The notes under the pieces: model-generated
What the model was told of the DNA's origin: nothing
What the model saw: the letters and a program-made list of their open reading frames with translations, nothing else
Database searches by the model: none
Translations under genes and position numbers: made by a program
Source of the DNA: Planctomycetota bacterium
GTDB lineage: Bacteria; Planctomycetota; B15-G4; JADJEK01
Assembly (NCBI GenBank): GCA_044225365.1
Contig: JBGAIQ010000073.1
Location: 1-25,165, forward strand
Reading direction: 5' to 3'
DNA length: 25,165 nucleotides
Shown: positions 1,497-7,066 of the stretch, in pieces
How positions within the stretch are numbered: position 1 is the stretch's first letter
How the letters are laid out: every line of letters starts with the position of its first letter

Positions 1497-2030
1497 ATGA
1501 CCATGGGAACGAATTGGAATCGCGAAGAGATCGTCACCCGCCTCGCGAGTCAGCTCGAGAGGCTGCTCGCACACGCGAGCGCGCCCGCGGCCGAGCTGGA
1601 ACGGACCTATGGTCCCGGCAAGTGGTCGGCGCGCCAGGTGCTCGCGCACGTCGCCGACGTCGAATTCATCAACTACTGGCGATTCTGCCGCGCGGTCGCG
1701 GAGCCCGGCTCGAGCGTCGAGGCGTTCGAAGAGAATGACTGGGAGAAGACGTTCGACTATGCGAAGCGTCCCGTCGAGATCAGCCGCGAGCTGATCCGCG
1801 GCCCCCGCCTCGCGTTCCTCCACGCGGCGAAGACGTTGCCGGACGCCGTACTCGCCAACGCCTGCCTGCATCCGCAGAAGGGCCAGATGAGCGGGCACGC
1901 GTGGCTCGCGCTGCAGGTCGCGCACACCGAGCACCACCTCGGGCAGATCGAAGCCGCGCGCGAGCAGCGGAAGTGGGAGCCCGTGCTGACCGCGGACTCG
2001 TGGAAGTACGGAGCGAAGCCGAAGACCTGA
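1497..2030 (+). CDS. DinB/YfiT-like metal-dependent protein (DinB_2 family; putative thiol S-transferase)
   Basis: 177 aa with GKWSARQVLAHVADVE and HTEHHLGQI, the three-His metal triad of the DinB superfamily. Confidence 0.85.
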   Translation: MTMGTNWNREEIVTRLASQLERLLAHASAPAAELERTYGPGKWSARQVLAHVADVEFINYWRFCRAVAEPGSSVEAFEENDWEKTFDYAKRPVEISRELIRGPRLAFLHAAKTLPDAVLANACLHPQKGQMSGHAWLALQVAHTEHHLGQIEAAREQRKWEPVLTADSWKYGAKPKT

Positions 2031-2038
2031 AGCGAGCC

Positions 2039-3325
2039 TCAGGTCTCGGGGACGACGCCGACGACGACGTGACGATCGATCGTGACGTCTCCGGGCTCGG
2101 CGGTGATCACGATCTCGAACGGGCGCGCGACATCGAAGCGGGACGGCAGGAGGAATCGCCCGGACTTCGATTCGATCGAGAAGTCCTCGCCGCCCGCGGC
2201 GGATTTCTGAACGAGCCGGATCGACGATCCCGGGGCGACGTAGGCGCCGACGAGCACGATCGACGGCCGCCCGCGGTTCGATAGGGGCGCAGTCAAGGGC
2301 TTCGACGGCTTGGATTCCGCCGCGCCGCGTGTGGGCGCCGGCGTCCCTTCCTCGAAGCTCTCCGCGAGAGCGATGTCGATCGGCAGCCGGATCGTTCGCC
2401 GTGCGTTGCACCTGAACTGGATGTGCGTGTCGTTCGGCTTCGTGTCGAGTCCCGGAACCGGCGGCTCGATGACGGCTCGCGGAACGACGATCTCGCGCCG
2501 CGTCAGCATCAACCCGGCGACATCGAAATCCTGCCCATCGGTCGCTGCATTCAGGAAGTCGAGGATGCCCGCGAGGTACGTCATCATCGCGGTGAACTCA
2601 TCGCCGTCGTAGAGCGGCTGCGGGGCGGCGACGTGGATCGCGAATCCCGCGCGTGCGAGCGCCTTCGCCTCGACTTCGTCGAGCGCGTCCTTGGGATCGA
2701 TCTTGTCGACTGCGAACTCTCCTGGCCCGAACATCGATGGGTCGCTCTTCTCGACGTCGTGGAGCTCGAACCCGAGGCCGGACGCGGCGTCGTAGCCATC
2801 GATCGTCGCTTCCATTCCCGCTCCCGCGAAATGGACGTTCCGCGCGAGCTTCAGCCCGTAGGCGGCAAACGCATCGGAGGCCAGATCCCTTGCGAGCTTC
2901 ACGTCGAAGATCCCGCTGTACGAGTTGCCGTAGCAGATCGGGATCCTTGCGATCCAGCGGGCCGATCCCTCCTTCGTCTCAGCGGCGGTCGCTCGCCGGA
3001 ACGTGGAATTCGCGAACCAATATCCGCCGGCTTCCTTCGCGCTCATCGATTCCAAGAGGGTGAGGATGCGGGCCTCGAGGTCGGGCGGGGCCGCGGGTCG
3101 CGCGGGATTCGAGGGCGGCTTCGGCGTCAGTTCCTCGGGCTCGCACGCAGCGAGCGAGAACGCCACGCTCGCGAGCGCGGCAGCGCGCGACAGCCGACCC
3201 GGCATGCGGCGCGCGACGAGCTCGCGAAACTCTTCGGGCGTGAGACTGCGCGGGTACCGCGGCTCGTAGCGCGTGGGGACTCTCGGCAGCGAGAAGGACC
3301 GGGCGTATCCGCGGGGAATCGTCAT
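2039..3325 (-). CDS. Hypothetical lipoprotein, partner of the radical SAM/SPASM enzyme (428 aa)
   Basis: ATG at 3325 has GAGGAGG 7 nt upstream and overlaps the native rSAM stop (ATGA). A 40-aa N-terminal extension (…YEPRYPRSL…) precedes a hydrophobic stretch and lipobox LAA-C61, then a Pro-rich linker. The body contains IPICYGNSYSG and IDGYD…GFE. Confidence 0.7.
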   Translation of the reverse strand: MTIPRGYARSFSLPRVPTRYEPRYPRSLTPEEFRELVARRMPGRLSRAAALASVAFSLAACEPEELTPKPPSNPARPAAPPDLEARILTLLESMSAKEAGGYWFANSTFRRATAAETKEGSARWIARIPICYGNSYSGIFDVKLARDLASDAFAAYGLKLARNVHFAGAGMEATIDGYDAASGLGFELHDVEKSDPSMFGPGEFAVDKIDPKDALDEVEAKALARAGFAIHVAAPQPLYDGDEFTAMMTYLAGILDFLNAATDGQDFDVAGLMLTRREIVVPRAVIEPPVPGLDTKPNDTHIQFRCNARRTIRLPIDIALAESFEEGTPAPTRGAAESKPSKPLTAPLSNRGRPSIVLVGAYVAPGSSIRLVQKSAAGGEDFSIESKSGRFLLPSRFDVARPFEIVITAEPGDVTIDRHVVVGVVPET

Positions 3326-4523
3326 TGGAGAACCTCCTCGATCCAATCCTCGAGCGCCGACATCGCGTGATGCGCGGGGTTGTATTGGCGGTCGATGAAC
3401 GTGCGGTCGCGTTTCTTCCATAGGGCTTCCCCCATTCGGTCGGCGGCGAGCGTGACGAGCTTCTCGTGTCGCGTTTCTTCCATAGGGCTTCCCCCATTCG
3501 GTCGGCGGCGAGCGTGACGAGCTTCTCGTGAGCGCAGACCAGTTCGTCGACCTCGCGCAGCTTGCCCGTCAGGCGATGATTGAGGCAGGCGCAGGCCGTC
3601 GCGCAGCGGGTTCGAATTCCGCACGACCCGCATTCGTCCTTGCGGACGCCGTTGAAGTGGTCGGCGACCTCGCGCTTCGCGGCGGCATCGAAGCCCTGCG
3701 CGAGATCGCCGATGCGGAATCGCGGGTCGTTCAGGAACTCCACGCAGGGATAGAGCACGCCGTCGGGATCGACGGCGAACTGGCGGACGCCCGCGGCGCA
3801 GTTGTGCTTCCGCCCCGCTCCTCGCTGCGTGTGCGCTGCGATCTTGCCGTCGAACGGCGCGAGGTAGAACTTCACGCCCTTGCGCGTCCATCGCACGTAG
3901 CGGCGGGCGAGAGCGCGATACTGCTTCCCGAGAACGGCGAGCGTTTCGTCGGTCCAGTCGCCGCCGAAATCGAGCCCCGTGATGAGCACCCGACTGCCCT
4001 GCTCGAACAGCCAGTCGACCGAGCGCGCGAAGTGGCGGGCGTTCTGCGGAGTGACGACCTGATAGGAGCAGAACGGGACCTTCTTGCGGACGAGCGTTCG
4101 AAGCGCGCGCGTCGCTTCGAACGAGGTCGGCGCGCCTTGCTTCGTCGGTCGTCCGAGATCCTGTGCGTCGGGAATCCCGTCGATCGAGAGCGAGATGAAC
4201 AGGCCGTGCTCGCGCGCGAAGTCGGCAAGAGCGTCATCGAGGAGGACGCCGTTCGTGGAGACCTTCGCCGTCACGAGGACGCCGCGGGCCTCCCCCATCG
4301 CGCGCAGCTTGGGGAGCGTCGCTTCGATCGTGCGGCGGTTGAGCAAGGGCTCACCGCCGAAGTAAGAGACGGCGATGTGCTGCTGACCCTGTTCGATCGC
4401 GAAGCCGACGGCCGCGAGCGCGACCTCGGGTGTCATGCCGGCGTCGGGGCGATGGCGCGCGAGTTGGTAGCAGTAGCGACAGGCCAGATTGCAGTCGCGA
4501 GTCAGTTGGAGGATGACTTCCAT
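3322..4523 (-). CDS. Radical SAM/SPASM-domain protein (anSME/AslB-like), frameshifted near the C-terminus by a 62-bp duplication
   Basis: CNLACRYC (CxxxCxxC), YFGGEPLL, STNG, SIDG, and SPASM cysteines (NCAAG…LYPC…ECGSC…RCATACAC…VC). Removing one duplicate copy gives a 379-aa protein ending …DWIEEVLQ at TGA 3322. As sequenced it reads through to 2979 (514 aa). Confidence 0.88.
3407..3530. repeat. Exact 62-bp tandem duplication (2 copies) inside the rSAM gene
   Basis: tcgcgtttcttccatagggcttcccccattcggtcggcggcgagcgtgacgagcttctcgtg occurs at 3407-3468 and 3469-3530. Confidence 0.97.
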
Positions 4524-4753
4524 GGCGCGCTCTCATTGCATTTTCGCGTTTGGCGCATTTGGCAAGCAATTCGCGCTGAGCGGAGCAGATCGCGGTGAGA
4601 TCGACGATCCCGAGACAACCTATCTTGGGGTCTACTCCCGGAAACTTCGCAAATCGAACGCGAGGATTCGCCGGGGGGTTCGACCGAACGACCTAGAATT
4701 CACGGTTCGATCCCACGAGACGACGACATCGACGAGGATTTCCGAGGATTTCC

Positions 4754-5755
4754 ATGAGCACCCAGCCTCGAAACGACACGAACAACACGTGCTGCGGGCC
4801 CGATTGCTGCCCGCCCGAACCGCGCGATGAAGCGGGCGTTGCCTCGGCGCAGGCGGCGCGGGAGCAGATTCGACAGGGCTACGCCGAGATCGCGAAGACG
4901 GGTCGTTGGTCCGGCGTCCAGGGTGAACCGTTGGTAGAGGTCGGCGCGAGTCTTCCCGTGGTCGAACCCGAAGGCGGGAAGGCGAACGCGGAATCCTGCG
5001 CGGGCGGGGGATGCTGCGGGCCGACCACGATCTCACCGGAACAGGTCGCCGCTGCGCTCGGGTACTCGACCCAGCAGCTAGCGAGCCTTCCGAGCGGCGC
5101 GAACCTCGGCTTGTCGTGCGGCAATCCCACCGAACTCGCGAGTCTGCGAGAGGGCGAGCGCGTCCTCGATCTCGGTTCGGGCGGCGGGCTCGATTGCTTC
5201 CTCGCGGGCCGCGCCGTCGGGGCGACCGGGCACGTCATCGGCGTCGACATGACGCCCGAGATGGTCGCGCGCGCACGGAAGAACCTCGCGACGTATCGGA
5301 CCAGCACGGGACTCAGCAACATCGATTTCCGACTCGGCGAGATCGAACATCTCCCCGTGGCGAACGACAGCATCGACGTCGTACTGTCCAACTGCGTCCT
5401 GAACCTCTCGACCGAGAAGCAACAGGTGTGGCGCGAGATCGCGCGCGTGCTCGCACCGGGCGGGCGCGTCGCCGTATCGGACATCGCGTTGTTCCAACCG
5501 CTGCCGGATGCGGTCCGATCGATGGTCGAAGCACTCGTCGGTTGCGTCGCGGGCGCTGCGCTCGTTTCGGAGATCGAGCAGTCGATGCGCGTCGCGGGGC
5601 TCGTCGACATCGTCCTGACCCCGAAGCCCGATTACGTCGCCGCGATGTCGAACGCCGACGATCCGTTGTTCCGCCGCATCCTCGAGCTTCTCCCGCCCGG
5701 CTCCCGCGTTTCGGACTACGTCACCAGCCTCGACATCCGCGCCAGAAAGTCATGA
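4754..5755 (+). CDS. arsM: Arsenite S-adenosylmethionine methyltransferase
   Basis: ANLGLSCGNP, SAM-binding VLDLGSGGGLDCF, GVDMTPEM, LGEIEHLP, SNCVLNLS and GCVAGA. GAGG RBS upstream; Cys-rich N-terminus. Confidence 0.92.
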   Translation: MSTQPRNDTNNTCCGPDCCPPEPRDEAGVASAQAAREQIRQGYAEIAKTGRWSGVQGEPLVEVGASLPVVEPEGGKANAESCAGGGCCGPTTISPEQVAAALGYSTQQLASLPSGANLGLSCGNPTELASLREGERVLDLGSGGGLDCFLAGRAVGATGHVIGVDMTPEMVARARKNLATYRTSTGLSNIDFRLGEIEHLPVANDSIDVVLSNCVLNLSTEKQQVWREIARVLAPGGRVAVSDIALFQPLPDAVRSMVEALVGCVAGAALVSEIEQSMRVAGLVDIVLTPKPDYVAAMSNADDPLFRRILELLPPGSRVSDYVTSLDIRARKS

Positions 5756-5757
5756 GT

Positions 5758-5835
5758 GGCGGACACGGATCGCAGCCGCCGCCGCCGATTTGCGCCGGCG
5801 GACACGGATCGCAGCCGCCGCCGCCGATTTGCTCC
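5758..5835 (+). repeat. REP-like family A, left array (2 copies, 39-bp period)
   Basis: GGCGGACACGGATCGCAGCCGCCGCCGCCGATTTGC starts at 5758 and 5797, between the convergent arsM and secreted-protein genes. Imperfect GGCGG…CCGCC hairpin. Confidence 0.9.
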
Positions 5836-5840
5836 GATGA

Positions 5841-6779
5841 CTATTCGATCGTGAGGAGCAAGCCGCCGGTCGCTGAGAATCCAAGGGGAGCGCCCGGGTC
5901 TACGACGAACGATTGGAGAACGACGGATCCGATGGGCGCATTCGTCGGTATTTGCGCCGTCCATTGAAACCCGCCGGCGGCGTCGAGCGGTAGCCCTAGG
6001 AGGGGCGGGAGGATCGGGGACAGCAGGTAGGAGCAACCACCGCCGACGGGAACGTTCGCGGGCGAGAGTCCTCCGAAGAGGATGGCGGTCGCGCCGGGCA
6101 CGCCATTCGCGATCTGAAGAGTGAAGGGACAACCCCCCGCTGCGCACTCGCTGCCCACGAGTGAGGGCACCATTCCACCCGTTCCGGGACAGCCAGAGCC
6201 GTAGGAAACCGTCGGAGACGCCGTCGCGGTCGAGGCGAAGAGATCGTCGAACACGAACGAGTTCAGTCCGGCGTTGGGAACGGTGAGGACCACCTTCTTG
6301 ATCTTCGAGCAGGAGACGACGCTCAGCGTTCCGAAGATGCCGGTGGTGATGGTGGAGGTATCGAGGAGGACTCCGCCTTGGTCGAAGGCCTGCATCGTGA
6401 ACGTGAAGGGGTGGAACAAGCCCGACGCATGGATCGATACGAACGACATCGGAACGTCGAACGTGATCGTCTCCGGTGCGACGAACTCCCCCGCAACGGC
6501 GCTGAACGCCAGGAAGTTGTGGCCGCTGAGGGCATCCATCGTGAACGTGGAATCGTTCAGGATCGCCCCGCCCTGTTCAGCGGCAGGACCCGCAAAATGG
6601 ACCCCGAGCGGTGCGTACAGGTTGGTCAAAGGGCTGGCGCTGTCGAACAGCGCAGGAGCCGATATCGGCTGGTTGATCGCCTTCTTGTCGAAGTCGATGT
6701 GGATGTCGGTGGCACGCGCGGATGCTGTTGCGACGCAAAGTGCGATGAAGAGGTTGGACGTCGTTCTCTGAGACGTCAT
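5841..6779 (-). CDS. Secreted hypothetical protein: signal peptide, beta-rich domain, ~120-aa conserved-type C-terminal domain
   Basis: ATG 6779 with a GAGG RBS; signal peptide MTSQRTTSNLFIALCVATASARA. The N-domain (IDFD…LTNLYAPLGVHF…FVFDDL) resembles the beta-sandwich passenger domains of surface proteins. The C-terminus runs YGSGCPG…LQSFVVDPGAP…LLLTIE. Confidence 0.8.
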   Translation of the reverse strand: MTSQRTTSNLFIALCVATASARATDIHIDFDKKAINQPISAPALFDSASPLTNLYAPLGVHFAGPAAEQGGAILNDSTFTMDALSGHNFLAFSAVAGEFVAPETITFDVPMSFVSIHASGLFHPFTFTMQAFDQGGVLLDTSTITTGIFGTLSVVSCSKIKKVVLTVPNAGLNSFVFDDLFASTATASPTVSYGSGCPGTGGMVPSLVGSECAAGGCPFTLQIANGVPGATAILFGGLSPANVPVGGGCSYLLSPILPPLLGLPLDAAGGFQWTAQIPTNAPIGSVVLQSFVVDPGAPLGFSATGGLLLTIE

Positions 6780-6862
6780 GAGAGACCTCGGGGAGAGATG
6801 CGCGCCGGGCTGCATCCGATGCTACACCGCTTCCCCCCGTCGAATTAGACGACTCGCCGTTC

Positions 6863-7066
6863 CGGCGGCGGCGGCTGCGATCCGTGTCCGCCGAATTGCA
6901 CGTTGATTCGGCGGCGGCGGCTGCGATCCGTGTCCGCCGAATTGCACGCTGATTCGGCGGCGGCGGCTGCGATCCGTGTCCGCCGAATTGCACGCTGATT
7001 CGGCGGCGGCGGCTGCGATCCGTAACCGCCGAAATCGGCGGCGGTGGACGCGGTCCGTGTCCGCCG
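6863..7066 (-). repeat. REP-like family A, right array (4 copies at 46-bp period plus 1 degenerate copy), inverted relative to 5758-5835
   Basis: CGGCGGCGGCGGCTGCGATCCGTGTCCGCCG starts at 6863, 6909, 6955 and 7001 (variant), with a degenerate copy at 7036. Linkers AATTGCACGYTGATT are near-identical. The core is the reverse complement of the left-array core. Confidence 0.93.

Follow-up and report, generated by a model that had tools for sequence, protein, structure and literature searches.

Radical SAM (S-adenosylmethionine) enzymes with a SPASM domain are a major source of novel peptide chemistry, and they are usually discovered via RRE domains (recognition elements for RiPPs, peptides that are made on the ribosome and modified after translation) and short precursors. 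Anaerobic sulfatase-maturing enzymes (anSMEs) act on a whole protein in the cytoplasm prior to export and read a short linear motif. In the literature, PapB is described as acting on sequences that are tethered to a recognized leader (PMC9413430), CrpC as installing thioethers on a protein (PMC13692751), and bufferins as unusually large RiPP precursors with Sec signal peptides that are modified in the cytoplasm and then exported by the general pathway, with a signal peptide that is dispensable for modification under overexpression (PMC11626156). We compared these systems with a locus on a 25,165-nt stretch of a Planctomycetota genome (contig JBGAIQ010000073.1 of assembly GCA_044225365.1; the whole stretch is called the window below), where a gene for a radical SAM/SPASM enzyme is coupled to one for a 428-aa protein, the partner, which carries a conserved sequence tag ahead of its export signal.

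Sequence comparison establishes the pairing of the two genes, the tag, and the co-distribution of this tag with one clade of radical SAM enzymes. The clade goes together with the tag and not with any cargo, which argues that the tag is a recognition element and the pair a unit for maturation before export. We consider it fairly probable that the two genes form such a unit, in which a cytoplasmic, RRE-less enzyme would recognize the short conserved tag at the very start of its partner and would modify this protein ahead of export; in the present case, export would probably be as a lipoprotein. Modification in the cytoplasm seems the most economical reading of the data. More generally, enzymes of the clade seem to read a tag that is portable: it stands at the N-terminus, in front of ordinary export signals, on many kinds of protein. 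The occurrence of enzyme and tag together across several phyla points to a route of pre-export protein modification that has not been described. A search of the literature returned no paper in which a radical SAM enzyme reads a pre-signal tag, with the proviso that the supplements of large radical SAM compendia may list the clade. If true, this reading would define a new recognition mode and, for envelope proteins (gut and rumen bacteria included), add a class of protein-level modification.

The enzyme opens with the CxxxCxxC motif (C11, C15, and C18, preceded by only 10 residues) and has the full SPASM cysteine set that the initial annotation had reported, which we located at C242, C260, C298, C301, C307, C311, C313, and C330. 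Pfam assigns Radical_SAM (60.5 bits) together with Fer4_12 and SPASM. The best NCBIfam match is PapB (NF047865) with 185.1 bits against a cut-off of 340, aligned over profile positions 5-329 of 330, and clade relatives reach 183 and 218 bits with the same model. Next come the SCIFF maturase/CteB model (TIGR03974; 128 bits against a cut-off of 425, with the alignment starting at profile position 100), the QhpD model (124 bits), and the anSME model TIGR03942 (106.5 bits, or 105.9 bits in the genome search, against a cut-off of 349.45, with positions 8-335 aligned). Among solved structures, CteB (5wgg) is nearest with 225 bits over chain residues 99-445 only, compared to 137 bits for an anSME by profile; since the CteB match begins only at residue 99, the enzyme has no RRE domain. 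It was previously described as AslB/anSME-like, which is right only in a loose sense: The combination of CxxxCxxC, a SPASM domain for two auxiliary clusters, and no RRE is indeed that of anSME-type enzymes, but the anSME score lies well below that of PapB. Judged by these profiles, the enzyme is not an anaerobic sulfatase maturase, and its nearest relatives are PapB and CteB.

PapB and CteB resemble the enzyme in their radical SAM core and full two-cluster SPASM domain and are its best sequence matches, but it falls below the cut-offs of both models and is without the N-terminal RRE of CteB. The partner furthermore is a 428-aa exported protein and not a short Cys-X3-Asp/Glu precursor. Its only cysteine in the shared N-terminal part is that of the lipobox (C61), and since there is no conserved cysteine in the part common to all partners, Cys-Asp/Glu thioether chemistry is not implied. 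The anSMEs (AslB/AtsB, TIGR03942, PDB 4k36) are RRE-less SPASM enzymes of similar size. They differ in that no sulfatase adjoins the locus (the partner that is coupled to the enzyme is without a match in Pfam or NCBIfam, and the immediate neighbors are not sulfatases) and in that the motif in the window lies ahead of the signal peptide and not in the mature protein. A Bacteroides-type system of radical SAM enzyme and lipoprotein (TIGR04133, TIGR04134) also combines a SPASM enzyme with a putative lipoprotein, but neither model finds this locus among its hits at E ≤ 0.01 or at E ≤ 1; TIGR04133 has 11 hits in the same genome, none of them the enzyme of the window, and TIGR04134 has sub-threshold hits elsewhere only. 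QhpD (with QhpC) and CrpC (with CrpA) likewise are radical SAM/SPASM enzymes acting on protein-sized substrates, but with an N-terminal recognition domain and Cys-rich substrates. Bufferins, finally, depend on another enzyme class (multinuclear nonheme iron-dependent oxidative enzymes, MNIOs) and have no tag before the signal, whereas a separate tag here precedes Sec, lipoprotein, and Tat-like (twin-arginine translocation) signals. Relatives of the enzyme fall into at least 252 sequence clusters at E ≤ 1e-40, and the source names among the best 120 of these are only "radical SAM", "SPASM domain-containing", "hypothetical", and "uncharacterized"; a scan of genome contigs with the single protein returned no relatives.

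The partner had been called a protein of no recognizable family, and it indeed has no match to any Pfam or NCBIfam family at E ≤ 0.1. No relatives came from a single-protein scan of genome contigs and no usable match from the ESM Atlas, and a word-based homologue search gave one relative only, while HMMER against 1.84 billion representatives found 138 relatives at E ≤ 1e-3, 38 of them at E ≤ 1e-30. Of these 138 family representatives, 57 carry the tag, and the others have ordinary signals or are fragments. Its consensus is ..P-V-P-x-x-Y-x-P-G-Y-P-x-x-L.. with a P-x-Y-P core, and the logo of the 57 tagged relatives gives Y at 98%, P at 100%, Y at 94%, and P at 100%, followed by L at 92%.

The junction of the two genes (Table 1) is as initially annotated: The ATG of the partner (3325-3323) overlaps the native TGA of the enzyme (3324-3322) in an ATGA, the enzyme frame ends in ...EEVLQ*, and a GAGGAGG (3339-3333) stands 7 nt upstream of the partner start. 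This translationally coupled arrangement is conserved in the gene neighborhoods of relatives. Tagged family members directly follow the enzyme in G001, G393, G163, L046, L037, and L133, G104 retains a decayed pair, and the 4-nt overlap recurs in G001 (L013, 6848-6851), G393 (L032, 8491-8494), L046, and L037 (6134-6137). Both genes align end to end with their orthologues. An untagged family member from another genome (G084, 94% complete) comes without any enzyme of the clade in that genome; the sole near match there is QhpD-like, has about 95 extra N-terminal residues, and lies beside a heme protein. In the genome of the window (G000), the combination of Y-x-P-x-Y-P and a hydrophobic segment occurs in two ORFs (open reading frames) only, the partner and a paralogue on contig C66, and only this extended form of the motif is specific. 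We rejected the short form, P-x-Y-P plus hydrophobic segment, as a genome-wide marker because it gave 9 hits in this genome compared to 8-25 for permuted control motifs.

Table 1. Coordinates of the enzyme/partner locus and its flanking genes in the window.
Feature	Position	Strand	Basis
Radical SAM/SPASM enzyme gene, no RRE domain	4523->3322	minus	ORF, translation, Pfam, NCBIfam
Partner gene (428 aa) with pre-signal tag, signal of lipoprotein type, alpha/beta domain, and beta-sandwich	2039..3325	minus	Translation, AlphaFold model
Coupling junction	3322..3339	minus	GAGGAGG 3339-3333, 7-nt spacer, ATGA
Pre-signal tag, residues 1-40	3206..3325	minus	Core Y20-E-P22-R-Y24-P25 at 3251-3268
Putative export signal, residues 41-61	3143..3205	minus	Arg-rich start, hydrophobic core, lipobox L-A-A-C61
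IPICYGNSYSG, residues 128-138	2912..2944	minus	Candidate site of the initial annotation
Exported alpha/beta domain, residues about 80-272	2510..3088	minus	Core 141-263 with weak likeness to restriction endonucleases
C-terminal beta-sandwich, residues 275-428	2042..2503	minus	Foldseek, VIA-align
Perfect 62-bp tandem duplication	3406..3530		Tandem Repeats Finder: 2.0 copies, 100% match, score 250
DinB-family gene	1497-2030	plus	Flanks pair
Methyltransferase gene	4754-5755	plus	Flanks pair

A hidden Markov model of the partner placed its family beside only 3 of 80 enzyme loci, and this led to the idea that the tag, rather than the partner family, goes with the enzyme. Briefly, loci were collected by scanning genome contigs and metagenome contigs with the enzyme alignment (80 kept from each), and an automated rule called a neighbor tagged if P-x-Y-P lay within 30 residues of the start codon and was followed by an uncharged hydrophobic 14-mer. 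The rule was positive at 11 of the 80 genome loci and 9 of the 80 metagenome loci, all of them among the loci most similar to the query, and six more tagged loci were read by eye (L045, L139, L145 with an S-Y-P variant, L146, L056, and L063). In a FastTree phylogeny of 163 enzymes, all 27 rows then labelled positive (the 20 loci from the scans, four of the six read by eye, the window, L013, and L032) fell into a single split of 36 rows with SH-like support of 93. Two Akkermansia loci read by eye later (L056 and L063) lie inside the same split and bring the count to 29/36, compared to 0/127 among the rows outside; the other seven rows within it are four short or incomplete contigs plus L049, L051, and L053. 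An IQ-TREE analysis of the 36 rows with 26 outside rows (every fifth of the 127) likewise left the outside rows on one side, with an SH-aLRT value of 100. Record titles in the clade name Planctomycetota, Akkermansia, Lentisphaerae, Clostridia, Krumholzibacteriia, Riflebacteria, and Deltaproteobacteria. Two of its members, from metagenome-assembled genomes (MAGs) of a Campylobacteraceae bacterium (L051) and a Promethearchaeota archaeon (L053), have an untagged soluble neighbor of about 120-150 aa, and the two neighbors share the motif P-H-I/F-H, two variable residues, and D/E-E-I-V-L-M.

We also drew an unselected sample from 401 Planctomycetota genomes, 49 of which match the enzyme profile at E ≤ 1e-60, by taking the 30 best enzyme loci (4 of them already known) with 1.5 kb on each side. 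A tagged neighbor was found by the rule at 19 of these 30 loci, and three variant tags read by eye (T-G-Y-P, A-K-Y-P, and A-R-Y-P) raise this number to 22.

The tagged neighbors differ in their mature part. Among them are members of the partner family, a shorter relative of its core, small acidic repeat proteins (rumen Clostridia), one LysM protein (Lentisphaerae MAG), and Lys/Pro-rich proteins (Akkermansia MAGs); one locus, L039, encodes five tagged paralogues in tandem. Four loci (L038, L039, L044, and L045) share the helix-hairpin core "DGYD...AFEF" of the partner (hhalign probability 92.5%, E 4.9e-7, 53 columns). Pairs of a radical SAM enzyme with a "YP-leader...DGYD...(G/A)FE" protein, which the initial annotation had suggested for other phyla, do exist in L038, L044, and L045 and align to residues 139-195 of the partner. 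The signals behind the tag are of lipobox, A-x-A, and Tat-like RRxFL types. Eight Planctomycetota loci (L227, L229, and L231-L236) have the P-x-Y-P tag followed by twin-arginine-like D-R-R-x-F-L, and the tag therefore seems to precede Tat-type signals besides Sec and lipoprotein ones.

Several small tagged partners (L041, L043, L134-L136, L140, L143, and L047) contain 1-4 units of the form L-x-G-[DEK]-[VI]-[AG]-[VI], often followed by D/P-E-P, while L048 shows, on inspection by eye, just the variant C-x-G-[KDE]-[IV]-A. Across 27 partner sequences the repeat unit matches 25 times, compared to 1.3 times in shuffles, for a pattern that was picked post hoc and on sequences many of which are related. 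With these units, the small partners look like multi-core precursors.

For a model of the complex, the enzyme (352 aa; an alignment of 17 rows) was combined with SAM, three clusters, and tag residues 1-75. The complex scored 0.63 (runs 0.63, 0.71, and 0.62), compared to 0.00 for the best of three controls. Of 80 solved complexes, 58 attain this mark, as do 2 of 110 mismatched pairs; these counts apply only roughly here, since we supplied our own alignments and let ligands ride along. At least 66% of contacts are common to the runs, and the pLDDT (predicted local distance difference test) of the partner is at least 52. Contacts fall on partner residues 8-28, 33, and 35-37, and tag residues 15-28 lie on the SPASM domain and the C-terminal helix, to which we infer that the tag binds. 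P22, R23, and Y24 make contact with residues 341-348 and 231 of the enzyme, of which D341 and L347 are invariant in the clade, and V16 to Y20 touch residues 300-303, next to C298 and C301. For the modified residue, our first choice is Tyr24 or its neighbors in the tag, our second the F/Y132-G-N-S segment in the exported domain of the partner, and we expect a −2 Da cross-link or an epimerization rather than formylglycine, the product suggested by the earlier analogy to anSMEs that does not survive the TIGR03942 score.

Several observations speak against a maturation unit that reads the tag. The complex score expresses model confidence only, with a pLDDT of the tag of only 53-57, and the chemistry and the modified residue are predictions. 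Cleavage of the signal would take a mark on the tag away from the mature protein and would leave its purpose unexplained. The loci that served to define the tag rule also served for the count, to which reading by eye contributed 9 positives. No tagged neighbor lies within 1.5 kb at 8 of the 30 unselected loci, including all 5 near 300 bits. The paralogue on contig C66 (G000:C66:1902-3203; L002/L016) is tagged without a radical SAM gene nearby and would have to be served in trans. Finally, the enzyme is damaged in three assemblies (the window, G163, and G104), and the system may therefore be dispensable. As to the C66 paralogue itself, it is 37% identical to the partner, reads I-P-I-H-F-G-N-A, and directly follows a glycine dehydrogenase-like gene.

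A different account would make the tag only a leader and place the modification in the exported domain, at IPICYGNSYSG, as a cross-link or oxidation at residues 131-135. It follows the standard RiPP logic of separate leader and core, with which the repeated Gly-centered units of the small partners would agree, and we regard it as rather unlikely on balance. This Cys/Ser/Tyr/Gly segment was the candidate site of the initial annotation, and its conservation speaks to both sides. G133, N134, S135, and G138 are nearly invariant, but residue 131 is a cysteine in only 5 of 50 leader-bearing relatives and a serine in the closest one, which speaks against this cysteine as the target. G-N-S is equally conserved in untagged, leaderless members, among which the one genome examined (G084) has no such enzyme, and unrelated partners of the same enzyme clade are without this domain altogether, which argues against the segment as a general target. 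At residue 132 (Tyr in the window, 2930-2932), 48 of the 50 tagged members have F or Y, whereas 21 of the 29 untagged ones have C; the 8 untagged exceptions have a variant tag or lack their N-terminus. This switch keeps the segment as a possible target via its aromatic residue instead of the cysteine, but it may also be just a subfamily split.

Untagged members thus have a lone conserved cysteine directly before G-N-S (C-G-N-S) where tagged ones have Phe or Tyr. We considered that an enzyme-made staple might replace a disulfide of the untagged members and dropped the idea, given that we found no second conserved cysteine column in the partner family; the untagged set had itself been chosen by its cysteine, which makes this comparison partly circular. 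A thioether from the lipobox Cys61 to a following Glu/Asp was set aside as unlikely as well, since many tagged relatives are without that cysteine.

Alternatively, the tag itself could be the product: its Tyr-Pro motif would be modified, and after the cut by signal peptidase the tag and the signal, as a modified N-terminal peptide, would remain on the side of the cytoplasm or membrane and act as signal or regulator. The enterococcal pheromones, which are cut from lipoprotein signal peptides, offer a parallel. If this were true, exporting a cargo with a Sec, lipoprotein, or Tat signal would yield a ribosomal natural product. We think this quite improbable.

More doubtful still is that the locus is a decaying remnant, that is, an enzyme pseudogene in a pair that no longer functions in this organism. 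The assembly suggests as much at first sight, with a perfect tandem duplication whose 62-bp unit is not a multiple of three, so that the assembled enzyme ORF runs on to 2979 (514 aa). Related loci are damaged as well: The enzyme of G163 (L033) has an in-frame TAA at 3815-3817, two codons before the first cysteine of CxxxCxxC, and in G104 (L034, 99-2075) a deletion leaves residues about 1-76 and 296-350 of the enzyme beside a partner that is split into two ORFs. However, removing one copy of the duplication from the window gives 1140 nt or 379 codons plus stop, which bears out the "repaired 379 aa" of the initial annotation and is in line with the orthologues (377-381 aa), and the remaining reading frame, the ribosome-binding site, and the gene overlap are intact. 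Logan contigs of runs X1, X2, and X3, which belong to one sample that is possibly the source sample, join 3405 to 3468 and thus skip exactly 62 bp. These three runs carry the single-copy enzyme, so an intact allele exists. The duplicated form is in none of the Logan contigs crossing the site, contigs being evidence of presence rather than absence; this comparison covers the contig-covered parts of the stretch and leaves aside run X4, which is a relative (95-99% alike). The duplication is probably an assembly artifact or a minor allele, and the frameshift is probably not real in the population.

An ordinary anSME that serves sulfatases elsewhere in the genome and stands beside the partner by chance can be dismissed as extremely improbable: Many Planctomycetota carry numerous sulfatases, and the enzyme has the size, RRE-less layout, full SPASM domain, and TIGR03942 alignment that such a role would call for, but its score is nearer to PapB and CteB, no locus of its genome reaches the TIGR03942 cut-off, 29 matches to the FGE-sulfatase domain (formylglycine-generating enzyme) point to the oxygen-dependent route, the 4-nt coupling is conserved across genera, and a Bacteroides thetaiotaomicron MAG locus assumed to be of anSME type (L094) lies outside the 36-row clade.

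The partner is probably a lipoprotein as read from its sequence: It has the long N-terminal leader initially described, which is followed by a lipobox, with ...RRMPGRLSR, a hydrophobic core, and L58-A59-A60-C61. This lipobox is not family-wide, because Cys61 is present in 17 of 45 leader-bearing relatives and the rest have A-x-A/Q-type sites. The claim that the partner itself is the substrate and is modified before export as a lipoprotein is supported as far as pairing, leader, and lipobox go, but not with Cys131 as the target.

In its AlphaFold model (pLDDT 83, predicted template modeling score 0.79), the partner has a poorly ordered N-terminus, a helix at residues 30-60 that covers the end of the tag and the signal, an alpha/beta domain, and a beta-sandwich. 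Folded alone, the alpha/beta domain reaches a pLDDT of 93. Foldseek returned nothing for it at E ≤ 0.001, and VIA-align ranked 3r3p_B first (Z 7.1, root-mean-square deviation 3.3, 96 aligned), followed by 3hrl_A (Z 5.9), the mitoribosomal chain 9g6k_Ld as third row overall (Z 5.6), VRR-NUC (5.2), Bax1 (5.0), and Vsr (4.9), so that 4 of the 5 rows after the top are nucleases. When the PD-(D/E)xK motif was checked within this weak fold match (residues 141-263), D176 was nearly invariant, and the strand-3 triplet was E-L-H, with E/K-L-R in relatives. The beta-sandwich matches the carbohydrate-binding module CBM61 in Foldseek (2xon, E 4e-4) and, with VIA-align Z values of 6.8-7.6, Gap/Asp accessory secretion proteins and carbohydrate-binding modules, a likeness of generic fold only. 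We draw no function from the sandwich or nuclease likeness because a Z of about 7 lies in the range that is common for this tool. One short contig (G130:C596:3953-6619; L036) has four tandem matches to the partner core (profile positions 117-217), as if the helix-hairpin module were repeated.

Around the pair, a scan of 1900-4800 for promoters and terminators gave background level only. As initially noted, no sulfatase, peptidase, or transporter adjoins the two genes; their neighbors are the DinB-family gene and the methyltransferase gene of Table 1. Farther along, a 324-aa ORF without a Pfam family (5841-6815) is flanked by GC-rich repeats of 32-39 nt at 5758-5835 and 6862-7066. They are present in 2 copies on one side and 5 on the other, in inverted orientation and with 46-nt spacing, with arms that are up to 100% complementary, and each unit could also form a hairpin of its own.

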